64,000 bases of DNA. Origin: Comamonas sp. lk. GTDB lineage: Bacteria; Pseudomonadota; Gammaproteobacteria; Burkholderiales; Burkholderiaceae_C. Made by a program: the position numbers and the translations under genes. The first letter of the stretch is position 1, and each line of letters opens with the position of its first letter. Location: NCBI GenBank assembly GCA_945860595.1, contig CAMAQV010000007.1, positions 15,595 to 79,594 of the forward strand. Reading direction: 5' to 3'. Below the pieces are notes generated by a model. It had not been told where the DNA came from, made no database searches, and saw nothing but the letters and a program-made list of their open reading frames with translations. This document shows positions 10,582 to 27,858 of this stretch, one piece after another.

Positions 10582-11532
10582 TTATGTGGCGTGCGATTGC
10601 GCCAGGCAGTGTTGAAACAGCCGGGTCGCGCGGGTCGGTGCCGGCGCGTGGCGGGTGATGGCAAAAAACGCGCAGTCGTAATGGAATTGCTGGGGCGCAA
10701 TAGCCTGCATCTGCCCTGCGGCCTCAAAGCTGGCGGCGTAATGGGCCGGTAAAAACCCCACAAACTGACCCGACAGAATGAAAGTCGCAATCGACTCCTG
10801 GTCAAAGCCCGTGGCCACCCGGCGCAGCCGCAGCCGCTGGCTCACCTCCATATTGGGCGAGTGGTAGCCCAGCCCGGCGAAACGCAAGGCCCGCATCGCG
10901 CCCCAGTCCAGGGCACCATGGTCAGCGCCGAAGAGGGGGTGTGTTGCGCCGCAATACAACAGCATGCCTTCGTCAAAAAGCGGCAGATAGTCCAGCGCGC
11001 TGGAGCTGCGGTGGCCGGGAATGATGCCCACCTGGAACTGTCCATCGAGTACCCCGCGCTCGATGGCCGTGAGCGTGCCCACATGCAGGCTCAGAGCCAC
11101 GTCCGGTGCGGCCTGGCTGAACAGCGCAATCGCGCGGGCAATCTGGGCCTTAGGGTTACTTGCCGTTTTGTCGAACACCGCCACCTGCAATTCGCCGCCC
11201 ATGCGCTGGTGGATGTCGTCCACCCCCGCCCGGAATGCGTCGGCGGCGGCAAACAGCTGCGTGGTTTGCGCGTAAATGTGCGCGCCTTCTTGCGTCAGCG
11301 CAAAGCCCGCTCTGCCCCGGCTGCATAAGCGCAAGCCCAAACGGGTCTCCAAGTCTTTGATGTGGCGGCTCACGGTGGATGCGCCGATATTGAGCTCCAG
11401 TTCTGCCGCCGCCATACCGCCGCAGTCAACCACCGTGCGGAACACCCGCAGAAGGCGCAAGTCCATGTCGCTGATCTGGCCCAAGGGCGCGCGCCGCGCC
11501 GAGGAGCCATCTGCCGTCGAAGTTGTTTGCAT
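10582..11532 (-). CDS. LysR-family regulator, BauR-like
   Basis: C-terminal 316 aa of the 811-aa track ORF. LysR HTH (DLRLLRVFRTVVDCGGMAAA...LETRLGLRLCSRGRAG). Divergent from the omega-aminotransferase. Confidence 0.88.
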   Translation of the reverse strand: MQTTSTADGSSARRAPLGQISDMDLRLLRVFRTVVDCGGMAAAELELNIGASTVSRHIKDLETRLGLRLCSRGRAGFALTQEGAHIYAQTTQLFAAADAFRAGVDDIHQRMGGELQVAVFDKTASNPKAQIARAIALFSQAAPDVALSLHVGTLTAIERGVLDGQFQVGIIPGHRSSSALDYLPLFDEGMLLYCGATHPLFGADHGALDWGAMRALRFAGLGYHSPNMEVSQRLRLRRVATGFDQESIATFILSGQFVGFLPAHYAASFEAAGQMQAIAPQQFHYDCAFFAITRHAPAPTRATRLFQHCLAQSHAT

Positions 11533-11634
11533 AAACCAGCAAGTAAATAGTGATAATCTGTTCTTTATAAGCGTAAACAGCCGCGAAAATGCGCCATCCG
11601 TGTTTGCACCCTCATTCTTATTCTTGGAGGCCTT

Positions 11635-13002
11635 ATGAAACTCAACGACACCACCGCAGGCGAACCCCTGTCCACCGCGAGCGACATCGCCCAAAGCCCT
11701 GCCTGGATGGACGCGCATTGGATGGCCTACACCGGCAACCGCAACTTCAAGGCCAACCCGCGCATGATGGTCAGCGCCGAAGGCATGTACTACACCGACG
11801 ACCACGGCCGCAAAATTCTGGACGGCCTGTCTGGTCTGTGGTGCTGCGGCCTGGGCCACTCGCGGCCCGAAATCACCGCAGCGGTCGCCAAGCAGTTGGG
11901 CACCATGGAATATTCCCCCGGCTTTCAGTACGGCCACCGCCTGTCGTTTGAATTGGCCAACAAAATCAAAGAACTCACGCCGGATGGCCTGGACAGCGTG
12001 TTCTTCACTGGTTCGGGCTCCGAGTCCGCCGATACCTCGCTGAAGATGGCGCGCGCTTACTGGCGCCTCAAAGGCCAGGGCAGCAAAACCCGTTTTATCG
12101 GCCGCGAGAAGGGCTACCACGGCGTGAACTTCGGCGGTATTTCGGTCGGCGGCCTGGTCATCAACCGCAAGATGTTCGGCCAAGGTGTCGAGGCTGACCA
12201 TTTGCCGCATACCCAACTGGCGTCCAACGCGTTCTCGCACGGCATGCCCAAGAACGGCGCGGAGCTGGCCGATGACCTGTTGCGTCTGATTGCCTTGCAC
12301 GATGCGTCCAACATCGCCGCCGTGATCGTCGAGCCCATGTCCGGTTCGGGTGGCGTGGTGGTGCCACCGGTGGGCTATTTGCAGCGCCTGCGCGAAATTT
12401 GCACGGCCAACAACATCTTGTTGATTTTTGATGAAGTCATCACCGGCTTTGGTCGTCTGGGTGCCTACACCGGTGCTGCCGCTTTTGGCGTGACGCCCGA
12501 CATCATGAACCTGGCCAAGCAGGTGACCAATGGCGCTGTGCCGCTGGGCTGCGTGGTGGCCAAAAAAGATATTTACGACACCTTCATGGAAGGCGGTGGT
12601 CCGGAGTACATGCTCGAATTCGCCCATGGCTACACCTACTCGGCGCACCCCGTGGCTTGTGCGGCGGGCATTGCCGCTTTGGATGTGCTGGTGCGCGAAA
12701 ATATGGTCGAGCGCGTCGCTGCCATTGCCCCGTATTTCGAAAAAGCGGTGTACAGCCTCAAGGGCAGCAAACACGTGGTGGACATCCGCAACTGCGGCCT
12801 GGCCGCAGGCTTCAGCCTGGCCCATGTGCCCGGCGAACCCGCCCGCCGGCCCTACGAGGTTGCCATGAAGTGCCTGGAAAAAGGCTTTTATGTGCGCTAC
12901 GGCGGCGACACCATACAAATCGCGCCGCCCTTCATCGTCACGCCAGCCCAAATCGACAGCCTGGTCAACGTCCTGGGCGAAGCCTTTAACGCCACGGCGT
13001 AA
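11635..13002 (+). CDS. bauA: Omega-amino acid (beta-alanine):pyruvate aminotransferase, class III PLP
   Basis: HWMAYTGNR, LDGLSGLWC, GYHGVNFGG, FDEVITGFGR and AKQVTNG (PLP lysine), plus HGYTYSAHP. Confidence 0.88.
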   Translation: MKLNDTTAGEPLSTASDIAQSPAWMDAHWMAYTGNRNFKANPRMMVSAEGMYYTDDHGRKILDGLSGLWCCGLGHSRPEITAAVAKQLGTMEYSPGFQYGHRLSFELANKIKELTPDGLDSVFFTGSGSESADTSLKMARAYWRLKGQGSKTRFIGREKGYHGVNFGGISVGGLVINRKMFGQGVEADHLPHTQLASNAFSHGMPKNGAELADDLLRLIALHDASNIAAVIVEPMSGSGGVVVPPVGYLQRLREICTANNILLIFDEVITGFGRLGAYTGAAAFGVTPDIMNLAKQVTNGAVPLGCVVAKKDIYDTFMEGGGPEYMLEFAHGYTYSAHPVACAAGIAALDVLVRENMVERVAAIAPYFEKAVYSLKGSKHVVDIRNCGLAAGFSLAHVPGEPARRPYEVAMKCLEKGFYVRYGGDTIQIAPPFIVTPAQIDSLVNVLGEAFNATA

Positions 13003-13031
13003 TCCACCACTTTTCAATTCCTTAGGTTTTT

Positions 13032-17353: not shown

Positions 17354-17818
17354 CTAGGGCGCCACCACATCCAGATTCGGAAAATAGCTGCGGTAGCGCG
17401 CAGCGTCCCGCGTGAGCAGCCGCAGATTGCCGACCAGTGCGTGCGCGCCGATGTAGAAGTCCGGCATGGGTGAGGATTTTGTGCCCTGGGCCTGGCGGTA
17501 GACCTTGAAGGCCTGGCCCGCCAGAAAGGCTGCGTCCCAGGGCAGGGCTTCACGCACCAGCGGCAGGCCTGCCAGGGCTGCCTCCAGGTCGCTGGCCCGC
17601 TCAAAGCGCGGGCTGAGTTCGGCCAGGATCAGCGGGTTGATCACCAGCGGGCCCAACCCGGCGCAGCGTTCCAACTGGTCTAGCGACCAGTCGGCCCATT
17701 GGGCATCGTCAGCCAGCACGTCAATCACAACGCAGCTGTCCACCAGCGTGCCGCGCGGTAGCGCCTGGACCAGATAGCGCGCGTCGGGCTCTGCCACACG
17801 CGGGGTGGTGCGGGCCAC
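17354..17818 (-). CDS. vapC: PIN-domain toxin (VapC-like)
   Basis: LVDSCVVID, ILAELS, PDFYIGAHA and LLTRDAARYRSYFP PIN motifs. GTG start 3 nt after the antitoxin stop. Confidence 0.88.
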   Translation of the reverse strand: MARTTPRVAEPDARYLVQALPRGTLVDSCVVIDVLADDAQWADWSLDQLERCAGLGPLVINPLILAELSPRFERASDLEAALAGLPLVREALPWDAAFLAGQAFKVYRQAQGTKSSPMPDFYIGAHALVGNLRLLTRDAARYRSYFPNLDVVAP

Positions 17819-17821
17819 GAC

Positions 17822-18061
17822 TCAGGCCCGCAAAAATGCCATGAATTCGTCAGTCCCCATGTCCTTGAACTGCAGCGCATTGGCGCTGCCGCGCACGCGG
17901 GCGAAAGCGGCGCGGGCGCTGGTCGCCGGGGCGGTGATGGCGCGCAAGATGACCTCGCCGTTTTCGCGCACCTCGAATTCGACTTCACTGTGCGGATGCA
18001 AACCCGCCTTCTCGCGCACCGCCTGCGGAATCGTGACCTGCCCTTTGCTGGTGATTTTCAT
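17822..18061 (-). CDS. vapB: AbrB/MazE/SpoVT-family antitoxin (VapB-like)
   Basis: MKITSKGQVTIPQAVREKAGL AbrB-fold signature, directly upstream of the PIN gene. Confidence 0.88.
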   Translation of the reverse strand: MKITSKGQVTIPQAVREKAGLHPHSEVEFEVRENGEVILRAITAPATSARAAFARVRGSANALQFKDMGTDEFMAFLRA

Positions 18062-18069
18062 AGGAAATC

Positions 18070-18099
18070 CTTACTTTTACGTGGTAAGAATCTTACCGC
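18070..18099. promoter_or_regulatory. Probable vapBC autoregulatory operator
   Basis: Palindrome GGTAAGA-A-TCTTACC at 18083-18097, plus a further CTTAC half-site at 18070-18074, just upstream of the antitoxin start. Confidence 0.65.
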
Positions 18100-18120
18100 A
18101 ATGCCGGTCTTGCGTGCAAG

Positions 18121-19089
18121 CTAGCGTTCTTTGACATAGGGTTTGCCGCTGGCCTTGGGGGCGACGGCTTTGCCGATGAAGCCGGCCAGCAAGATGACCG
18201 TGAGCAGGTAGGGCAGGGCTTGGATGGCTTGCACCGGTACCACGCCGATGCCGGGCAGCGCCACACCTTGCAGCCGCATGGCGATAGCGTCCAAAAATCC
18301 AAACAACAGGCAGGCCCACAGCGCCCCTGCGGGCTGCCAGCGCCCAAAGATCAGTGCGGCCAGCGCCATGAAGCCGCGCCCGGCGGTCATGTGCGGCGAA
18401 AAACTTGCGCTTTGGGCCAACACCAGGTAGCTACCTGCCAGCCCGCACAACAGGCCGTTCAGCACAAGCGCGCGGTAGCGCAGCCCGGCCACAGAGACAC
18501 CGGCGGCGTCCACCATCTGCGGGTTCTCGCCCACCGCCCGAAGGCGCAGGCCAAAGCGGGTGCGAAACAGCAGCCACCCGCTTGCCGGCACCAGCGCATA
18601 GGCCGCGTAAACCAGCGCGCTGTGCCCCAGCAGCGCCTCGCCCACGACCCGTCCCAGCAGCGGCACAAAGGCCAGCGCGTCCCCGGCCTGCGGTAGCAGC
18701 GGCTGCAGGCGGACGCCGGAGGCCAATGGAGGGGTTTGTCCACCCTGGTGGAACCAGGCAATGCCCAGCACTACCGTCAGCCCGGCTGCAATGATGTTGA
18801 TGGCCACGCCCGAAACCACCTGGTCCCCGGGGTAGCTCACGCAGGCCACTCCGTGCAGCATGGACAGCGCCACGCCTACCGCCATAGCCGCGACCAGCGC
18901 CAGCATCCAAGAGCCGCTGGCCGCGCCTGCAGCACCTGCGGCAAATGCGGCGAAAAGCATCTTTCCTTCCAAGCCGATGTCCACCACGCCCGAGCGTTCT
19001 GCGAACATACCTGCCAGCGCGCACAAAATCAGCGGCGTGGCCAGGCGCACGCTCGAGGCCAGCACCGAGGCGACGAGTACTTCATCCAC
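18121..19089 (-). CDS. Nucleoside/BMP-type ABC transporter permease
   Basis: ERSGVVDIGLEGKML, LRAVGENP and GRGFMALAALIFGRW motifs; hydrophobic. Confidence 0.9.
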   Translation of the reverse strand: MDEVLVASVLASSVRLATPLILCALAGMFAERSGVVDIGLEGKMLFAAFAAGAAGAASGSWMLALVAAMAVGVALSMLHGVACVSYPGDQVVSGVAINIIAAGLTVVLGIAWFHQGGQTPPLASGVRLQPLLPQAGDALAFVPLLGRVVGEALLGHSALVYAAYALVPASGWLLFRTRFGLRLRAVGENPQMVDAAGVSVAGLRYRALVLNGLLCGLAGSYLVLAQSASFSPHMTAGRGFMALAALIFGRWQPAGALWACLLFGFLDAIAMRLQGVALPGIGVVPVQAIQALPYLLTVILLAGFIGKAVAPKASGKPYVKER

Positions 19090-20191
19090 GGTGTGCCTTT
19101 GCCAGACCGGCGCCGCGCAGCATCCAGGCCAGCGGCGGTGCGATCACATAGGTCATGGCCCCTGAGAACAGCACCACAAAACCCTGCAACATCACCACCA
19201 TGTCCCGGCTGAAACCCGGCACGTCAAAAGCCAACTCGGCCCCGCCCTGAAACAGCGCGCCGAATAACAGGCTGGACAGCAGGATGCCCAGCGGGTGGTT
19301 GCGCCCCATCAGCGCCACGGCAATGCCGGTAAAGCCCGCGCCGCTGACAAATTCCAGCACCAGCTTGCCGCTGACACCGGCGACCTCGTTCATCCCGACC
19401 AGACCGGCTAGCGCGCCGGAAATGGCCATGGCCAGAATCACCTGGCGCTGTGGTCGAATTCCGGCGTAGGCAGCGGCCTGCGGGCTAGCGCCAACCGCGC
19501 GCAGCCGGTAGCCCGCGCGGGTGTGCCACACAAACAGGTACACCGCCAAGCAGGCGAGCAGGGCCAGCAGAAAACTGGTATTGAGCGGTGACGACGGCCA
19601 TTGCACCCCCACCCAGGCCAAGGCCGTCTGCGCAGAGGGCAGCTGGGCCGACGGCGCAAAGGGCATGCTTTCAATCGCCATATTGCCCGGCGGGCGCATG
19701 TGGTTGACCAGCAGGTACACCAGCAAAGTACTGGCCAAAAAGTTGAACATGATGGTGGTGATCACTACATGGCTGCCCCGGTAGGCCTGCAAATACGCGG
19801 GTATGGCCGCCCATACCATGCCGAACAATGCGCCCGCCAGCACCATGAGCGGCAGCATGGCCCAGGCTGGCAGCAGCGGTGCCCAGGCCAAGGCCACCAG
19901 TGCCACCCCCAAGCCACCCAGCGTGGCCTGGCCTTCACCGCCGATATTGAATAAGCCGCCGTGAAAAGCCACTGCTACGGCCAGGCCGGTGAAGATGAAG
20001 CTGGTGGTGTAGTACAGCGTGTAACTCAGACCCCGCGCACTGCCGAACGCACCTTGCACCAAAGCCGCCAGCACCTGCGCCGGACTCTGGCCTACCAGCG
20101 CCACCACCACACCCGCCACCAGCAGGGCGACGCCGAGGCATACGGCCGGCAGCAGCGCCACATCCGCCCAGCGCGGCAGCGTCTGCCTCAT
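19082..20191 (-). CDS. Nucleoside/BMP-type ABC transporter permease
   Basis: GLFNIGGEGQ, HVVITTIMFN and GFTGIAVALMGRNHP motifs; overlaps both neighbours. Confidence 0.9.
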   Translation of the reverse strand: MRQTLPRWADVALLPAVCLGVALLVAGVVVALVGQSPAQVLAALVQGAFGSARGLSYTLYYTTSFIFTGLAVAVAFHGGLFNIGGEGQATLGGLGVALVALAWAPLLPAWAMLPLMVLAGALFGMVWAAIPAYLQAYRGSHVVITTIMFNFLASTLLVYLLVNHMRPPGNMAIESMPFAPSAQLPSAQTALAWVGVQWPSSPLNTSFLLALLACLAVYLFVWHTRAGYRLRAVGASPQAAAYAGIRPQRQVILAMAISGALAGLVGMNEVAGVSGKLVLEFVSGAGFTGIAVALMGRNHPLGILLSSLLFGALFQGGAELAFDVPGFSRDMVVMLQGFVVLFSGAMTYVIAPPLAWMLRGAGLAKAHRG

Positions 20192-21741
20192 GCCCCGCCC
20201 CCGGCCATCAGCAGGCCCAGGCGGGCCTCGGTGCAGTCGCCAATGGCCAGGCTGCCCGTGACGCGGCCCTGGCTCATCACCAGCACACGGTCTGCGAGGG
20301 CCAGAATTTCGTCGAGTTCGCTGGACACCAGCAATACCGCGCCGCCCGCATCGCGCAGCGCCCGCAGCTGGGCGTAGATGAACTCAATAGCGCCTATGTC
20401 TACTCCGCGTGTGGGCTGGCCCACCAGCACAACCCGAGGCGCTTGCCCGAGCTCGCGGGCGAGCACCAGTTTTTGCTGGTTACCCCCCGAAAACTTGCTG
20501 CTCTGGAGGCGCACGTTGCGGGGGCGCACGTCAAAGCGTTCCATCAGCGCGGCCGTTGCGGTGTGCATAGCGTGTCTGCGCATCCACGGGCCGTGGCTGT
20601 ACTGGGGCGTGTCTTCGTAGCCCAGCACGGCCGACTCCCAGGCCGCAAACTCCATCACCAGCGCGCGCGCATGGCGGTCTTCGGGCACATGCGCCAGGCC
20701 CAGTGCACGGGCCTGGTGCGGGTCCAGCCAGGTGGGCGCTGCGTAGTGCATCCCGCCCAGCTCCAGGCCACCGCTCTGGGGCACGCGCAGGCCGCACAAG
20801 ACATCCAGCAGTTCACTCTGGCCGTTGCCAGCGACCCCGGCCACACCCACGATTTCTCCGGGGAAAAGGTCCACATCTACCGCGTGCATGCGCTGCACGC
20901 CCATTGCGTCACGCACGGTCAAGCCGCGCGCACGCAGCAAAGGCGCTGCGCTGGATTGCGGCGTGCCGGGTGCGGTGCCTTCCGAGCGCCCGGTGTGGAC
21001 TGTGCGTCCAACCATGGCTTGCGCCAGCGTCTCGATGCTGGCCTGCGTAATCGGCATGTCCTGCACCACCCGCCCGCCCCGCATGACCGTCACCCAGTCG
21101 CACAAGGCCATCACCTCTTTGAGCTTGTGGGTGATCAAAATCACTGTGGTGCCCTGCGCCCGCAGTTGCCGCAGCATTGCAAACAATTGCAGGGTTTCCT
21201 GCGGCGTCAGCACTGCGGTGGGCTCGTCCAAAATCAAGATGCGTGCGCCCCGGTACAAGGCTTTCAAAATCTCCAGCCTTTGCCGGTCGCCTACCGCCAG
21301 ATCAGCGACCAGAGCGTCTAACGGAACAAGCAGCCCGGTGGATTGCATCAGGGACTCCAGGCGTGCACGCACAGGCCGTGCCGCTTGGTTCAAGAGCCAA
21401 TGCGGCTCGGCACCCAGCATCACGTTGTCCAGCGCGCTCAGGGTGTCGACCAGCATGAAGTGCTGGTGCACCATGCCGATACCCAGGGCGATCGCATCGT
21501 CCGCATTACGGATATCCGCAGGCACACCAAACACCGCCACCGTGCCACTGTCTGCTGGGTAAAAGCCGTAGAGCACCGACATCAGCGTGCTTTTGCCGGC
21601 GCCGTTTTCACCCACGATGCCGTGCACCGTGCCCGCCCGAACCGTTAGGTCGACATCGGCATTGGCCGCGACTGCAGCAAAACGCTTGCAGATGCCATGC
21701 ATCTGCACCGCGAGAGATTGTTCTGCATCAGCCGGGTTCAT
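20188..21741 (-). CDS. Nucleoside ABC transporter ATP-binding protein (two cassettes)
   Basis: GENGAGKST, LILDEPTAVL, FSGGNQQK and QPTRGVDIGA. Confidence 0.92.
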   Translation of the reverse strand: MNPADAEQSLAVQMHGICKRFAAVAANADVDLTVRAGTVHGIVGENGAGKSTLMSVLYGFYPADSGTVAVFGVPADIRNADDAIALGIGMVHQHFMLVDTLSALDNVMLGAEPHWLLNQAARPVRARLESLMQSTGLLVPLDALVADLAVGDRQRLEILKALYRGARILILDEPTAVLTPQETLQLFAMLRQLRAQGTTVILITHKLKEVMALCDWVTVMRGGRVVQDMPITQASIETLAQAMVGRTVHTGRSEGTAPGTPQSSAAPLLRARGLTVRDAMGVQRMHAVDVDLFPGEIVGVAGVAGNGQSELLDVLCGLRVPQSGGLELGGMHYAAPTWLDPHQARALGLAHVPEDRHARALVMEFAAWESAVLGYEDTPQYSHGPWMRRHAMHTATAALMERFDVRPRNVRLQSSKFSGGNQQKLVLARELGQAPRVVLVGQPTRGVDIGAIEFIYAQLRALRDAGGAVLLVSSELDEILALADRVLVMSQGRVTGSLAIGDCTEARLGLLMAGGGA

Positions 21742-21784
21742 CGCGGGCCGGTCTCAGCGTGCGTGTGCGTGCCGGCCCGCATGA
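21738..21784 (-). promoter_or_regulatory. Intercistronic stem-loop between the BMP gene and the ATPase gene, pairing the ATPase start codon
   Basis: GCGGGCCGG (21743-21751) and CCGGCCCGC (21772-21780) form a perfect 9-bp inverted repeat, extended by TCAT/ATGA across a 1-nt bulge. Confidence 0.5.
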
Positions 21785-21794
21785 GCGCAAGCAG

Positions 21795-22775
21795 TCAGTA
21801 CTTGCAGGCGTTATCGGCCATGTAGTCGGCCACTTTGATCTTGCCGCTGATGATGTCGGCCTTGGCAGCGTCGACCTTCTTCTTCATATCGGCGGTCACC
21901 AGCTTGGCGTTGTTGGCATCCATGGCGTAGTCCACGCCACCTTCTTTCAAGCCCAGCACCGTGATGCCGGGGGCGAACGATTTGGAGACGTTGTAAACCG
22001 CCACGTCGACGCGCTTGAGCATGGAGGTCAGCATGGTGCCCGGCTGCAGGTGGTTCTGGTTGCTGTCCACGCCGACGGCAAGTTTGCCGCTGTCTTTGGC
22101 GGCCTGGTAGACGCCGACGCCGGTGCCGCCTGCTGCGGCAAACACCACGTCTGCGCCTTTGGCGAATTGCGCCTTGGCCAGCTCACCGCCACGGCTTGGG
22201 TCGTTCCAGGCCGCGCCAGTGGTACCGGTCATGTTGGCGAATACTTCGGCTTTGGCGTTGGCAAATTTGGCACCCTGCTCGTAGCCGCACTGAAACCGGC
22301 GGATGAGCGGAATGTCCATGCCGCCCACAAAGCCGACCTTGCCGGTTTTACTGGCCATGGCGGCCATGGCGCCGACTAGAAAACTGCCTTCCTGCTCCTT
22401 GAATACCACCGACTGCACATTGGGCAGGCCGACTACCATGTCGACGATCACAAAGTTGAGCTTGGGAAATTCCTTGGCGACTTTTTCAATGGCCGAGGCC
22501 TGCGAAAAGCCCACGCCGATGATGGGGCTAGCGCCTTTTTCGGCCATGCGGCGGATCGCCTGTTCGCGCTGCGATTCATTGGCAATTTCGAACTCCAGAT
22601 ACTGCTTGCCGGTTTCTTTTTTCCAGGCTTCCATGCCGACAAAAGCGGCCTCGTTGAACGACTTGTCGAATTTGCCCCCCATGTCGTAGACGATGGCGGG
22701 TTCGGCGGCAGCGGCAAACGATGCCGCTGTTGCGACGCTGACAAGCGTTAAGCGGGCGAGGGTGGAAAACTGCAT
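21795..22775 (-). CDS. BMP-family ABC substrate-binding protein (purine/nucleoside type)
   Basis: GGKFDKSFNE, FKEQEGSFLVG, VFAAAGGTG and GVDSNQNHL. Signal peptide from MQFSTLARL. Confidence 0.9.
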   Translation of the reverse strand: MQFSTLARLTLVSVATAASFAAAAEPAIVYDMGGKFDKSFNEAAFVGMEAWKKETGKQYLEFEIANESQREQAIRRMAEKGASPIIGVGFSQASAIEKVAKEFPKLNFVIVDMVVGLPNVQSVVFKEQEGSFLVGAMAAMASKTGKVGFVGGMDIPLIRRFQCGYEQGAKFANAKAEVFANMTGTTGAAWNDPSRGGELAKAQFAKGADVVFAAAGGTGVGVYQAAKDSGKLAVGVDSNQNHLQPGTMLTSMLKRVDVAVYNVSKSFAPGITVLGLKEGGVDYAMDANNAKLVTADMKKKVDAAKADIISGKIKVADYMADNACKY

Positions 22776-22955
22776 GAGAGAACTCCCTGAAAAATGGGTG
22801 GATGAACAGAGTGGCTGGGTGCAAATAGTATCCACAAACCCGCGCCGCACGCGCAAACTTTGGCGCCTGCTGCGCGGGGTCATCCGTCACAATAGCCAGA
22901 CACGCTGCGTGGCGCTTGAGTCCGCTGCGCAATTTTTCACCGGAAAGTGGGCCCC

Positions 22956-23843
22956 ATGATTCTGATTGCCGGTTCTGCCAACCTGGACTTTGTGGTGCGG
23001 GCGCACCATATTCCCGCGCCGGGGGAGACGGTGCTGGGGCAAAGTTTTCAGACTTTTCCCGGTGGCAAGGGGGCGAACCAGGCAGTGGCCTGCGCGCGAG
23101 CGGGCGGGGCCGTTACCCATTTTTTGACCGGGCTGGGCGCGGATGCTTTTGCGATGCCACTCGAGGCGTCGTTGCGGGACGCGGGGGTGCAGCTCCATGC
23201 CGTGCGGCCCGAGGGCCAGCCCACCGGAACCGCGTTCATCTGCGTCTCGGATGCGGGCGAAAACGCCATCACTGTTGCACCCGGCGCCAACAGCAGTCTG
23301 CGGCCCGAACACCTGTTGTCGCTGGACGGCTTTAGCCACCTGCTCATGCAGCTTGAGATTCCGCTGGAGACGGTACAGGCCTATGCGCAGGCAGCGCGCG
23401 CGGCTGGTATGGCTGTGGTGCTGAATGCAGCGCCGGCACGCGCCCTGCCGCAAAGCCTGCTGGATGTAGTGGACGTTTTAATCGTCAACGAGGGTGAGCT
23501 TGCTGCGCTGACGGGCCCGTCTGGTGATGTTGCCCAGCGCATGGCCATGCTGACTTTGCCGACGCTGGTGGTGACCTTGGGCGCACGCGGATGTGTGGCG
23601 CGCCACCACGGGGCTCTGTACGAACAAGCCGCCTTTGCTGTGGATGTGGTGGACAGCACCGGCGCGGGCGACACCTTTTGTGGCACGCTGCTGGCCGCTT
23701 GGAGCGCGGGTGCCGATATGGCTGCCGCGCTGCGCCGCGCCAGTGCGGCGGCTGCCCTGGCCTGCACCCGCATGGGCGCGCAGTCCAGCGTTCCTACTGT
23801 GGACGAAGTCGATCAATTCTTGGAAAGCCATCCCCAGCCATGA
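22956..23843 (+). CDS. rbsK: Ribokinase (PfkB family)
   Basis: GSANLD, PGGKGANQAVA, LNAAPA, VNEGE and VDSTGAGDTF. Confidence 0.88.
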   Translation: MILIAGSANLDFVVRAHHIPAPGETVLGQSFQTFPGGKGANQAVACARAGGAVTHFLTGLGADAFAMPLEASLRDAGVQLHAVRPEGQPTGTAFICVSDAGENAITVAPGANSSLRPEHLLSLDGFSHLLMQLEIPLETVQAYAQAARAAGMAVVLNAAPARALPQSLLDVVDVLIVNEGELAALTGPSGDVAQRMAMLTLPTLVVTLGARGCVARHHGALYEQAAFAVDVVDSTGAGDTFCGTLLAAWSAGADMAAALRRASAAAALACTRMGAQSSVPTVDEVDQFLESHPQP

Positions 23844-24844
23844 GCAACTCTGCGCCCCGCAAAGTGATTTACGACACCGACCCGGGTGTGGACGACGCCA
23901 TGGCGCTGTACTACGCGCTGGCGCATCCGGGTATCGATGTCGTCGGCATTACTACCACGTTCGGCAATGTGACGGTGGAGCAGGCCGCGACTAACGCCCT
24001 CTACCTGTGTGCGCTGGCGCAGCAGGCTTTACCGGTTACGCGGGGCGTGGCGCGGCCCTGGGTCAAGCCCGGCGAAGCGCCGCCCGCCCACATCCACGGC
24101 GCGGACGGCTTGGGTAATTTGCCGCAGCGCGCACCGCATGGGATGATGCTGGATCCGCGCCCGTCGGCGCAGTTCATCGTGGATATGGCGCGCGCCCATC
24201 CCGGTGAGATCACGCTGGTGGCGGTGGGGCCGCTGGGCAATGTAGCGGCTGCGCTGCTGCTGGAGCCGCGGCTGCCGCAGTTGCTGCAGGAAGTGATCAT
24301 CATGGGCGGCACCGTGCTGGAGCCGGGCAATGTGTCGCCGGTAGCCGAAGCCAATGTCTGGAACGACCCGCACGCCGCCGACATCGTCTTCAACGCCGGC
24401 TGGAAGATCACCATGGTGGGCTTGGATGTGACGCACCGCCTGATCCTGCCAGTCAGCCTGTTTGCGCGCATCGCCGCCCACCATCAGCATTCAGCTACTG
24501 ACACGCTCTTGCATGCGGTCAATTTTTACGCCGGCTTTTACAGCGACTTGTATCCGCACGTGGCCGCTATCTACGGCTGCTTCGGACACGATGTGCTGGC
24601 CTTTATTTACCTCAGCAACCCGGAGCTCTTTAGCCTGGAGCATGGCCGTGTGCGCGTGGTCACCGAGGGGCTGGCGCAGGGGCAAACCGTGCTGCGGCGC
24701 AAAACCATTCCCTACCCCCAAGCCGGTTGGGATCCCCAGACACCCGCTACCGCTGTATGCATGCAGGTCGACCATGCAGGGGCGGCCGATGTGTTCACCC
24801 GCACCATGCTCGGCGACTGGCTGCGCCCCGCGCATCCGGCTTGA
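23840..24844 (+). CDS. Nucleoside hydrolase (IU-NH family)
   Basis: DTDPGVDD Ca-binding motif, IHGADGLG, GPLGN, AEANVWNDP and GHD. ATG 23840 overlaps the rbsK stop. Confidence 0.92.
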   Translation: MSNSAPRKVIYDTDPGVDDAMALYYALAHPGIDVVGITTTFGNVTVEQAATNALYLCALAQQALPVTRGVARPWVKPGEAPPAHIHGADGLGNLPQRAPHGMMLDPRPSAQFIVDMARAHPGEITLVAVGPLGNVAAALLLEPRLPQLLQEVIIMGGTVLEPGNVSPVAEANVWNDPHAADIVFNAGWKITMVGLDVTHRLILPVSLFARIAAHHQHSATDTLLHAVNFYAGFYSDLYPHVAAIYGCFGHDVLAFIYLSNPELFSLEHGRVRVVTEGLAQGQTVLRRKTIPYPQAGWDPQTPATAVCMQVDHAGAADVFTRTMLGDWLRPAHPA

Positions 24845-24857
24845 AAGACTGCACACC

Positions 24858-25724
24858 ATGCGCACACCGCCCGCTTCTGACCCGCACCTGCCCATCGTGG
24901 ACTTCGCTGACGCGGACGCGCCCCGCGCCTTTGTGGCCAGCCTGCACCACACCGGGTTTGCGGTCCTGAAAAACCACCCGCTGGATCAGGCGCTGGTGGA
25001 CGGAATTTACGCCGAATGGTTGAATTTTTTCCACAGCGCGGCGAAGTTTGATTACCCCTTCAACACCCAGACGCACGACGGCTACTTTTCCACTGCCGTG
25101 TCGGAGACGGCCAAAAACCACAGCACCAAAGACGTCAAAGAGTTTTTTCATGTTTACCCATGGGGCCAGTACCCGGCGCAGGTCAGTGATGCCGCACTGC
25201 GCTACTACGCGCGCGGCAAAGAACTCGCCACCACCCTGTTGCAGTGGGTGCAAGACGGCTCACCGCCGGACGTGCGTGCGCGGTATTCGCAGCCTTTGCC
25301 CGCGATGCTCGAGGGCAGCGAACACACGCTGCTGCGGGTGCTGCATTACCCGCCATTGAGCGGCCAGGAGGAGCCGGGTGCTATGCGGGCTGCGCCGCAC
25401 GGCGACATCAATTTGCTCACCATCCTGCCGGCCGCTACCGAGCCGGGTTTGCAGGTTCTGGGCACCAATGGCGACTGGCACGACGTGCCCTGTGACTTCG
25501 GCCTTTTGATCGTCAACATCGGTGACATGTTGGAGGAGGCATCAGGCCGCTACTTTCCGTCCACGGTACACCGCGTGCTCAATCCGGTGGGCGAAGCGGC
25601 GCGCAAGTCCCGGGTCTCGCTGCCGCTGTTTTTGCACCCGCGCAAAGAGGTCGTTCTGTCAGACCGCTACACCGTGGGCAGCTATTTTGAGGAGCGCATC
25701 CGCGAGCTGCGCATCAACGGCTAA
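24858..25724 (+). CDS. 2-oxoglutarate/Fe(II)-dependent oxygenase (IPNS/DIOX-like)
   Basis: LRVLHYPP, HGD (HxD), STVHRV (distal His) and RVS (RxS 2OG-binding). Start placed at ATG 24858. Confidence 0.88.
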   Translation: MRTPPASDPHLPIVDFADADAPRAFVASLHHTGFAVLKNHPLDQALVDGIYAEWLNFFHSAAKFDYPFNTQTHDGYFSTAVSETAKNHSTKDVKEFFHVYPWGQYPAQVSDAALRYYARGKELATTLLQWVQDGSPPDVRARYSQPLPAMLEGSEHTLLRVLHYPPLSGQEEPGAMRAAPHGDINLLTILPAATEPGLQVLGTNGDWHDVPCDFGLLIVNIGDMLEEASGRYFPSTVHRVLNPVGEAARKSRVSLPLFLHPRKEVVLSDRYTVGSYFEERIRELRING

Positions 25725-25744
25725 GCGCGGCGCGGGCGGCCTGC

Positions 25745-26941
25745 TCAGCCCGCAAATGCGGCGATGCCGGTCATCGCACGGCCCAAGATCAGGGCGTGGA
25801 TGTCGTGCGTGCCCTCGTAGGTGTTGACCACTTCAAGGTTGACCAAGTGGCGCGCCACACCGAACTCGTCGCTGATGCCGTTGCCACCCATCATGTCGCG
25901 CGCCATGCGGGCGATGTCCAGGGCTTTGCCGCAGGAGTTGCGCTTCAAGATGGAGGTGATTTCCACGCTGGCCGTGCCTTCGTCTTTCATGCGCCCCAGG
26001 CGCAAGCAGCCTTGCAGACCGAGCGAGATTTCGGTTTGCATGTCGGCCAACTTCTTTTGAATCAACTGGTTGGCGGCCAAGGGGCGGCCAAACTGCTGAC
26101 GGTCCAGCGTGTATTGACGGGCGCGGTGCCAGCAGTCTTCGGCGGCACCCAAGGCGCCCCAGGCGATGCCGTAGCGCGCGCTGTTCAAGCAGGTGAACGG
26201 GCCTTTCAAGCCTTGCACGTCGGGGAAGGCGTTTTCTTCGGGCACAAACACGCCGTCCATCACGATTTCACCAGTGATCGAGGCTCGCAAACCCACCTTG
26301 CCGTGGATGGCGGGGGCGCTCAAGCCCTTCATGCCTTTTTCCAAAATGAAGCCGCGGATAGGGCCCACTTGACCGCCTTCGCTGACCTCTTTGGCCCACA
26401 CCACAAACACGTCCGCAATCGGGCTGTTGGAGATCCACATCTTGGAGCCGCTCAATGTGTAGCCGCCCGGCACTTTCTGCGCGCGGGTCACCATGCTTTG
26501 CGGGTCCGAGCCGTGGTCGGGCTCGGTTAGGCCGAAGCAGCCTATGGTCTGGCCGGTGGCGAGTTGGGGCAGGTATTTCTGGCGCTGTGCTTCGGTGCCG
26601 AATTCAAAAATCGGCAGCATCACCAGCGAGCTTTGTACGCTCATCATGGAGCGGTAACCGCTGTCCACGCGCTCCACTTCGCGCGCAATCAGGCCGTAGG
26701 CCACGTAACCCAGCGCCGGGCCGCCGTAGGCTTCGGGGATGGTGGGGCCGAGCAGGCCGAGCTCGCCCATTTCACGGAAGATGGCCGGATCCGTGGTTTC
26801 GTTGCGAAAGGCCTGTGTGACGCGCGGCAGCAGTTTGTCCTGGCAGTAGGCGGCGGCGGCATCGCGCACCATGCGCTCGTCGTCGCTGAGTTGGGCGTCC
26901 AGCAAAAAAGGGTCTTGCCATTGGAATGCGGCGTGGGCCAT
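25745..26941 (-). CDS. gcdH: Glutaryl-CoA dehydrogenase
   Basis: [45 protein letters not shown] and TYEGTHDIH. Start at MAHAAFQW. Confidence 0.92.
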
Positions 26942-27021
26942 GAAAAGGGTCTCCGAAAGCGCAAACCCGCCGACATGGCGGGTCGTGGCATGGCTTGAAG
27001 TGTACTGAGGCCCCGCCCGGC

Positions 27022-27858
27022 ATGGGCGACACTTGGGGCTTGCCATTCACCCTGTCCGTGCTGAACCGATTGACCTCTTTCGCCTCTTGGGCGTCTACTT
27101 ACGCCGCTCTCGCCACGGGGCTCGCTGCCGCACTGCTCCCGTGCGGCGTGGCGCAGGCCTGGGGTCCGGTGGGTCACCAAACTGTAGCGATGGCCGCCCG
27201 CGCCCAGCTCACCCCCGAGGCCTTGGTTCATTTGCAGGAACTCATGGCCCTGGAGCCCGGCACCATTCTGGCGGAGCTTGCCACCTGGGCCGACGAACAT
27301 CGCAGCCCCGAGACCGGTCCCTGGCATTACGTCAACTTGCCCCCTGGTGATTGCAATTACCGCCCCGCCCGCGATTGCCCGGACGGACAGTGCATCGTCG
27401 CCGTGCTGGACGCACAGCTGCGGATATTGGATTCCCGGGCACCGCCGACCGAGCGCTTGCAGGCGCTGAAATGGGTGGTGCATCTGGTCGCAGACCTGCA
27501 CCAGCCGCTGCACGCCGGCATGGCCGAAGACCGGGGCGGCAACCGCTACCAGCTGCAGTTTTTGCTGCGCTGGAGCAATTTGCACGCGCTGTGGGATTCG
27601 GGCCTGATCCACCATATGGGTGAGGACGCGCCGACCCTGGCGGCGCGCCTGGCCCGCCAGTTCTGGCCATCCTCGCCGGGGAGTTTGAGCGTGCGTGCCG
27701 CAGCGGAGGAGTCCTGCAAGATAGCCCGCCAACCCGGCTTTTACCCCTCGGATACCGTGGGGCAGGACTACATCAGGGCCTACACGCCCATCGTGGAGCA
27801 GCGACTCTGGCTTGCCAGCGTGCGCCTGGCAGCGCTGTTGAACCGGGCTTTGCGGTAG
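27022..27858 (+). CDS. Secreted S1/P1-family nuclease (start uncertain)
   Basis: Signal-like stretch ending AQA followed by WGPVGH, then [18 protein letters not shown] and LHALWD, which supply the tri-zinc ligands. Confidence 0.88.

Follow-up and report, generated by a model that had tools for sequence, protein, structure and literature searches.

Gene content and organization of the nucleoside cluster

The analyzed DNA, hereafter called the window, comprises 64,000 nucleotides of Comamonas sp. lk (GenBank assembly GCA_945860595.1, contig CAMAQV010000007.1, positions 15,595 to 79,594 of the forward strand) and harbors a cluster of genes for nucleoside uptake and breakdown, which ends with the gene of an Fe(II)/2-oxoglutarate (2OG) oxygenase, the subject of this study. 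Three genes of the cluster are situated on the plus strand (all positions refer to the window): a PfkB-family ribokinase-like kinase of 295 amino acids (22956-23843; Pfam PfkB, E 2.3e-58), an inosine-uridine (IU)-type nucleoside hydrolase (NH) of 334 amino acids (23840-24844; Pfam IU_nuc_hydro, E 3.8e-86), and, as last gene of this putative kinase-hydrolase-oxygenase operon, the oxygenase of 288 amino acids (24858-25724; Pfam DIOX_N plus 2OG-FeII_Oxy), which resembles SO_2589 (PDB 3ON7). Divergently oriented on the minus strand is an importer of the ATP-binding cassette (ABC) type. Its first gene encodes a Bmp/PnrA-like periplasmic substrate-binding protein of 362 amino acids (21795-22883; Pfam Bmp PF02608, E 2.8e-55), of which a 78-86% identical copy is found in Rhodoferax-type loci, followed by an ATPase of 517 amino acids with two nucleotide-binding domains (20188-21741; Pfam ABC_tran twice, E 9.2e-42) and two permease subunits of 369 amino acids (19082-20191; Pfam BPD_transp_2, E 1.2e-36) and 322 amino acids (18121-19089; Pfam BPD_transp_2, E 1.6e-31). 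The ATPase and permease genes overlap by 4 nucleotides and the two permease genes by 8 nucleotides; in loci of Rhodoferax and Undibacterium, too, the smaller permease accompanies the rest of the importer genes. Hence, the four-gene BMP-type importer divergent from an rbsK-like gene, an NH gene and an oxygenase gene, as outlined in a preliminary description of this locus, is present with all seven genes in their respective Pfam families.

The spacing given in that description, a 4-bp overlap followed by a 13-nucleotide gap, can be read directly in the sequence: the kinase stop codon overlaps the NH start as ATGA, and exactly 13 nucleotides (24845-24857) separate the NH stop codon from the ATG of the oxygenase. 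A simple scan detected neither a plus-strand terminator-like site between the NH and oxygenase genes nor promoter-like sites across 17800-27200; 20 nucleotides past the stop codon of the oxygenase, a gene for an acyl-CoA dehydrogenase ends in convergent orientation. Taken together, these features make the three plus-strand genes look like one transcription unit. The divergent intergenic region between the two operons measures 72 bp (22884-22955) and contained no Rfam family and, by simple scan, no sigma-70 consensus; no riboswitch or other RNA family matched Rfam in the whole window.

The start of the kinase was placed at the ATG at 22956 rather than at the GTG at 22947 of the longer open reading frame (ORF). 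Against the NCBIfam ribokinase model TIGR02152, which was by far the best-scoring one and aligned in full length, the kinase reached 262.5 bits and stayed below the cut-off of 299.65; the name rbsK is therefore likely, yet not certified by this model. The NH matches profile positions 1-294 of 297 in IU_nuc_hydro, and it contains DTDPGVDD at residues 12-19, corresponding to the DxDxxxDD calcium/ribose-binding motif; a pair of His and Asp is present where the catalytic region aligns. None of the NCBIfam equivalog cut-offs was reached by the NH; among solved structures, entries designated RihA and nucleoside N-ribohydrolases 1 and 3 match it best, ahead of IU-NH entries.

Assignment and active site of the oxygenase

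The oxygenase matches two Pfam domains, PF14226 (E 9.7e-9) and PF03171 (E 1.6e-16), both above their cut-offs, and no others. Its residues 11-285 align with PDB 3ON7 (E 3.2e-108, about 55-60% identity), a structural-genomics entry for SO_2589 from Shewanella oneidensis, labelled "putative oxygenase"; SO_2589 agrees with the window protein in length and in its invariant residues. Judged by these matches, the window protein is a member of the SO_2589/3ON7-like orthologous group. The subfamily is large: with E<=1e-10 as threshold, one collection yields 6640 proteins, and a second one, clustered at 50% identity, yields 231 clusters with E<=1e-30. Longer or fused relatives carry only a KTSC domain or an M90 peptidase and are uninformative, and matches in the ESM Atlas are restricted to unnamed clusters of 2OG oxygenases. 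A 2023 review (PMC10467617) counts the enzymes of both structures, 3ON7 and 3OOX, among those "with still undefined functions". Our literature search found no paper on SO_2589, and none that gives 3ON7-like or 3OOX-like proteins a function or notes a linkage to nucleoside genes.

Residue conservation was assessed in an alignment of 35 diverse relatives, reaching down to 35% identity (alignment A1), and among 81 orthologs. The latter consist of the window protein and the proteins from the 80 closest loci of an ortholog scan with one genome per species, which are 56-93% identical to it; the same set was used for the phylogenetic tree. The iron triad H181, D183 and H238 (HxD...H) is invariant in both sets, as are R252, R160 and Y164, hence the iron and 2-oxoglutarate sites are intact. 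S254, which forms an RxS motif with R252, is invariant among the 81 orthologs. R252, S254 and Y164 align with R286, S288 and Y194 of thymine-7-hydroxylase (T7H), which bind the C5 carboxylate of 2OG (PMC4787775). The candidate residues of the substrate pocket, D74, E83, D92, E95, H98, R177, I184, N185 and H260, are likewise invariant or nearly so in the 81 orthologs of all genomic contexts. Since these candidate pocket residues are conserved whatever the neighborhood, the orthologs most likely share one substrate.

The AlphaFold model of the oxygenase (predicted local distance difference test score, pLDDT, 93.8) displays a double-stranded beta-helix fold. The Foldseek ranking is led by 3ON7 (template modelling score, TM, 0.87) and 3OOX, followed by T7H from Neurospora, and all top matches are 2OG oxygenases. 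AdaV, the C2' halogenase of deoxyadenosine monophosphate (dAMP), is a detectable relative further down among the fold matches.

Gene neighborhoods of oxygenase orthologs

The preliminary description had suggested to check whether the oxygenase subfamily co-occurs with BMP and NH genes, and this check turned out positive. Using the window proteins in tblastn searches, an NH gene was found near the oxygenase gene in 16 of the 80 loci. A further 10 loci show another type of nucleoside linkage (see below). In 14 loci, all of the Rhodoferax and Undibacterium types, the NH gene is located directly upstream of the oxygenase gene; the other two are alphaproteobacterial, with NH genes on either side of the oxygenase gene in Kaistia, and with importer and NH 3-8 kb downstream in Rhizobium, where the NH gene is at a distance of about 8 kb. 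The BMP importer and ribokinase genes occur in three arrangements, i.e., with a divergent importer as in the window, in the order importer-kinase-hydrolase-oxygenase on one strand (locus L009), and as kinase-importer-hydrolase-oxygenase in Undibacterium. The NH was also the commonest neighbor family when all flanking ORFs of the 80 loci were clustered without bias.

The same clustering also brought out a second, non-homologous gene set: in the 10 loci mentioned above, which belong to Alteromonas, Salinimonas, Bowmanella and Pseudoalteromonas, genes for uridine kinase (Udk) and a NupC-type transporter directly precede the oxygenase gene on the same strand, and in three of them (Alteromonadaceae) a nucleotide phosphodiesterase gene follows. 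As further accessory genes, four Undibacterium-type loci have a cytidine deaminase gene behind the oxygenase gene, L009 has a 5'-nucleotidase gene in that place, and in Rhodoferax aquaticus (L090:6025-7971, minus strand) and Curvibacter sp. CHRR-16 (L091:5993-7906, minus strand) a pair of pseudouridine kinase and glycosidase genes separates the importer from the kinase. The one Shewanella among the 80 loci (L043), a species different from the source of SO_2589, has no nucleoside neighbors. The latter pair consists of a PfkB kinase and an Indigoidine_A-family gene (pseudouridine kinase/pseudouridine-5'-phosphate glycosidase), and the genome to which the window belongs has no match to the glycosidase family. 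The accessory genes beside the orthologs all belong to nucleic-acid scavenging and lean towards pyrimidines. Collectively, the recurrence of the linkage in varied gene orders and with non-homologous partner sets shows that the oxygenase is not a chance neighbor of nucleoside genes.

A second oxygenase subfamily occupies the same position. In two genomes of the Comamonadaceae family, a gene related to CC_0200 of Caulobacter (PDB 3OOX) follows the NH gene of BMP-ABC-ribokinase-NH operons (L088:9679-10659 and L089:9233-10252, both plus strand); in L088 the next gene encodes a TRZ/ATZ-type aminohydrolase (10663-11985). The 3OOX-like proteins represent a sister subfamily in the same post-NH slot, but they differ from the window protein in length (326-339 amino acids) and are only about 37-45% identical to it over local matches, namely 37% over residues 29-267 and 45% over residues 157-268 only. 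They are rare, with orthologs in two of 150 genomes sampled from the family of the window's organism. An order-level search for this paralog yielded none and was uninformative, given its too strict cut-off and the few family members in the sample.

Occurrence in related genomes and phylogeny of the linkage

The family sample of 150 genomes contains 17 with an ortholog of the oxygenase and 133 without. An NH was found in all 17 other ortholog-bearing genomes and in the window's own genome, compared to 34 of the 133 genomes without ortholog. One of these 34 is the unpublished genome G145, on which the co-occurrence claim does not depend. The co-occurrence with NH is supportive, although it is not a clean statistic.

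In the tree, oxygenase genes with NH linkage group into a single well-supported clade, composed of Rhodoferax and Undibacterium, plus an alphaproteobacterial pair; those linked to udk and nupC fall into two separate clades. The sampled genome G128, from the genus of the window's organism, retains a ribokinase-like and NH gene pair (L094:9756-11707, minus strand; 67-68% identical) with no adjacent BMP importer and without the oxygenase. Hence, kinase and hydrolase form a conserved core, and the oxygenase has the character of an accessory addition to it.

Flanking genes

Approximately 1.3 kb beyond the oxygenase gene, behind the convergent acyl-CoA dehydrogenase gene, the window contains a gene for an S1/P1-type nuclease (26995-27858, plus strand). 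By degrading single-stranded DNA or RNA, such a nuclease could provide nucleotides; in none of the 80 related loci was it detected next to the oxygenase. On the other side, just past the last importer gene, a PIN-domain gene (17354-17818, minus strand) likely encodes the toxin of a toxin-antitoxin pair, and a small ORF (17805-18134, plus strand) overlaps it. Farther away, an 811-amino-acid ORF (10582-13017, minus strand) has its LysR-type domains confined to the C-terminal 290 residues and is overlapped by a 455-amino-acid ORF on the opposite strand; the start of the larger ORF is probably over-extended.

Discussion

With moderate confidence, we regard the oxygenase as a working, co-transcribed part of nucleic-acid scavenging, which would convert a recalcitrant pyrimidine nucleoside into an ordinary ribonucleoside. 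The gene content and spacing, the intact Fe/2OG site, the place in the 3ON7-like subfamily, the recurrent linkage to salvage genes and the conserved pocket residues are observed, while co-transcription, substrate class and reaction are all inferred. Nucleosides would enter the cell via the BMP-type ABC importer, the NH would split ribonucleosides into base and ribose, the kinase would make ribose-5-phosphate, and the uracil could be recycled by Upp. The oxygenase would act before the NH, or before uridine kinase in other bacteria, and would use O2 and 2-oxoglutarate on a pyrimidine nucleoside that is not usable by the ribonucleoside-acting enzymes, thereby yielding an ordinary ribonucleoside. 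Ribonucleosides or ribose are the substrates of the recurrent partners (IU-type hydrolase, ribokinase and uridine kinase); this, together with the pyrimidine bias of the accessory genes, suggests a recalcitrant pyrimidine nucleoside as substrate. Oxygenases of the 2OG class that act on free nucleosides are already known; the case described here would be a new bacterial one from a different subfamily.

Several observations weigh against this explanation. Among the 81 orthologs, 53 have no nucleoside gene within about 8 kb. Three distant subfamily members were inspected (P0121, P0127 and P0139): two are located on informative contigs, which lack a nucleoside context, and the third on a contig of 939 bp that is too short to inform either way. 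Related genomes are not independent, so that the co-occurrence with NH in 17 of 17 genomes overstates the signal, and, judged by the tree, one or two events in ancestors could suffice to explain the NH linkage. Moreover, the kinase-hydrolase pair of G128 manages without the oxygenase. Additional objections apply to the two possible kinds of substrate, and they are considered below.

The first possibility, tentatively put forward for all such reactions together, is an oxidative "repair" of modified pyrimidine nucleosides derived from RNA. N- or O-demethylation, or the desaturation of dihydrouridine to uridine, are candidate reactions. The presence of pseudouridine catabolic genes within related clusters is consistent with this possibility. 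A precedent exists in the 2OG oxygenases FJS/PHYHD1, which demethylate free 2'-O-methyl nucleosides (PMC12709175). They act on free modified nucleosides, not on nucleotides or RNA, and deliver canonical ribonucleosides for catabolism, which is the same logic as proposed here. However, FJS/PHYHD1 belong to the phytanoyl-CoA dioxygenase (PhyH) family, while the Pfam scan detected no PhyH domain in the window oxygenase. The only known free-nucleoside demethylase sits in another family, and none of our results singles out a specific modified nucleoside. The salvage of modified nucleosides, which was already proposed in the preliminary description, stays a live candidate.

The second possibility, 2'-hydroxylation of deoxyuridine, thymidine or deoxycytidine by the oxygenase, which the preliminary description does not mention, appears somewhat more doubtful. 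This reaction is known for 2OG oxygenases: fungi that have neither thymidine kinase nor thymidine phosphorylase use the pyrimidine deoxynucleoside 2'-hydroxylase (PDN2'H, EC 1.14.11.3), whose product is taken over by a nucleoside hydrolase. The corresponding gene was reportedly described by Genz et al. in ACS Catal in 2025. Like PDN2'H, the window oxygenase would be a 2OG oxygenase of free nucleosides whose product is used by an NH. IU-type hydrolases and uridine kinase act on ribonucleosides. The window genome, which is 99% complete, contains no match for the C-terminal domain of thymidine phosphorylase, for thymidine kinase or for DeoC, and in this regard it resembles the fungal hosts of PDN2'H, which lack thymidine kinase and phosphorylase; Upp is present. 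Of the five other family genomes whose oxygenase gene adjoins an NH gene, four likewise lack DeoC, and the relationship to the dAMP halogenase AdaV, which acts at C2', lends some additional support. The identification of the fungal gene in 2025 is cited in a passage of PMC12709175. No chain named PDN2'H is found among the PDB sequence or fold matches of the window oxygenase.

Against 2'-hydroxylation stands the gene content of other bacteria. Thymidine kinase is encoded in all of five other ortholog-bearing genomes, DeoC in two and thymidine phosphorylase in one of them, and DeoC occurs in 13 of the 17 ortholog-bearing family genomes, including all 12 with an unlinked oxygenase. In contrast to the hosts of the fungal enzyme, other ortholog-bearing bacteria thus do possess thymidine kinase and often DeoC. 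A role of the oxygenase as general substitute for the Deo route fits the window genome, but fails in the five other genomes and in the family sample; because DeoC co-occurs in 13 of 17 genomes, and in all 12 with unlinked oxygenase, it is not a general replacement of that route. The wider proposal that 3ON7-like oxygenases are bacterial nucleoside 2'-hydroxylases, which turn DNA-derived deoxynucleosides into ribonucleosides, is to be taken with the same doubt.

As a separate observation, several genomes of the family sample carry a DeoC-type aldolase gene within 2-6 kb of an NH gene (G008:C5, G054:C206, G099:C105 and G133:C10). This proximity recalls the hydrolase-plus-aldolase cluster reported for the breakdown of 2'-O-methyluridine, which is mentioned in PMC12709175.

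An alternative that we judge unlikely holds that the substrate of the oxygenase is unrelated to nucleosides, for example an amino acid, an amine, a small acid or a similar compound, and that the gene was captured at the ends of nucleoside operons in a few lineages. About two thirds of the orthologs are indeed situated beside unrelated genes, such as DUF2238 and a DnaJ-related gene in Vibrio, RNase G in Chromobacteriaceae, or genes of the size of TonB-dependent receptors (about 950 amino acids, by size only) and a family-5 binding protein in Roseateles. The missing nucleoside context of the more distant subfamily members points in the same direction, and an ortholog in only about 17 of 150 sampled genera is what would be expected for a mobile accessory gene. 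However, capture of an unrelated enzyme does not easily account for linkage to two non-homologous sets of nucleoside genes (NH, ribokinase and BMP importer on the one hand, Udk and NupC on the other) in separate clades, or for a hydrolase-oxygenase adjacency that was kept through several changes in gene order. The same holds for the NH in 17 of 17 other ortholog-bearing family genomes, for its rank as commonest family in the unbiased clustering of flanking ORFs, and for the paralogous 3OOX-like subfamily with the same linkage.

It is also quite improbable that the oxygenase acts on the base after the hydrolase, either in a T7H-like oxidation of thymine to 5-hydroxymethyl-, 5-formyl- and 5-carboxyuracil, or by another hydroxylation of the uracil or thymine ring that opens a catabolic route. 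This idea draws on the finding that T7H of Neurospora crassa (PDB 5C3P-5C3S) is the closest characterized relative of the oxygenase (PDB profile search E 1.4e-31; Foldseek E 3e-22, TM 0.76); both enzymes share the DIOX_N plus 2OG-FeII_Oxy architecture as well as the ligands of the metal and of 2OG. The 3OOX-like paralog from the corresponding operon position resembles T7H still more closely (E 9e-32). Moreover, the T7H pathway, like the window operon, includes a nucleoside hydrolase (PMC4787775), and in the window operon the NH would supply thymine from 5-methyluridine. Nevertheless, the two proteins share only about 22% identity and differ in length (333 amino acids in T7H, 288 in the window oxygenase). 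Thymine is contacted in T7H by Y217, F292, R190, N87, E122 and N294 (PMC4787775). After mapping these contacts via the profile alignment, R190 and the base-stacking F292 were found retained as R160 and F258, while Y217 is replaced by I184, N87 by H/Q73, E122 by H98 and N294 by H260, and the replacing residues are invariant or nearly so in the 81 orthologs. The two retained residues are presumably part of generic motifs of the DIOX_N plus 2OG-FeII_Oxy oxygenase class.

The partner enzyme of T7H, iso-orotate decarboxylase, was not found in the 99%-complete genome. Two Amidohydro_2 matches are present: one is clear and corresponds to PDB 4DLF ("Amidohydrolase 2") rather than to any decarboxylase entry, the other is weak (26 bits, L093); an iso-orotate decarboxylase gene is also not among the recurring annotated neighbor-gene clusters of the 80 loci. 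Furthermore, the context of uridine kinase and NupC frees no base. The assignment of the oxygenase as T7H was rejected, with four of six thymine contacts different and the partner decarboxylase not found. Regarding the T7H-like step considered in the preliminary description, the kinship to T7H stands, but the step itself is disfavored.

Finally, a purine-directed activity is highly improbable. It would consist in the hydroxylation of xanthine or hypoxanthine, or in the demethylation of methylated purine nucleosides that enter through the PnrA-like importer. In its favor, BMP/PnrA-type binding proteins were originally described as binding purine nucleosides, the 3OOX-like paralog in L088 is followed by the TRZ/ATZ-type aminohydrolase, and an Amidohydro_1 gene (Pfam only) lies near the ortholog in L077. 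Against it, the accessory genes of the orthologs are either specific for pyrimidines or of generic function (uridine kinase, cytidine deaminase, pseudouridine kinase/glycosidase, NupC), and Pfam detects no TauD domain in the window oxygenase, whereas XanA, the xanthine dioxygenase known so far, is a TauD-family enzyme. The xanthine-hydroxylase-like step of the earlier interpretation is hence unsupported; what holds of that interpretation is the linkage of the oxygenase to nucleoside genes, which is real.

The conversion of a recalcitrant pyrimidine nucleoside, as favored here, would have consequences beyond the Comamonas locus. The 3ON7-like and 3OOX-like oxygenases are widespread subfamilies with crystal structures available since 2010 and no assigned function. 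Their recurrent and partly independent linkage ties both to nucleoside uptake and salvage, which narrows the search for the substrate from virtually anything to a short panel of purchasable nucleosides. If confirmed, the proposed activity would give bacteria an equivalent of the free-nucleoside oxygenases discovered recently, the fungal PDN2'H and FJS/PHYHD1, and the stereospecific oxidation of nucleoside C-H bonds would be of interest for the making of nucleoside analogues.

If deoxynucleosides are the substrates, bacteria that, like this one, are without thymidine kinase, thymidine phosphorylase and deoxyribose-phosphate aldolase (DeoC) could feed on extracellular DNA, and the "deoxy-to-ribo" route, known to date from fungi alone, would also exist in bacteria with ribo-specific hydrolases and ribokinase or uridine kinase. 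More generally, should the oxygenase render deoxy- or modified nucleosides accessible, it would provide a missing piece in the recycling of dissolved DNA and RNA by common aquatic heterotrophs such as Rhodoferax, Undibacterium, Alteromonas, Pseudoalteromonas, Vibrio and Shewanella.

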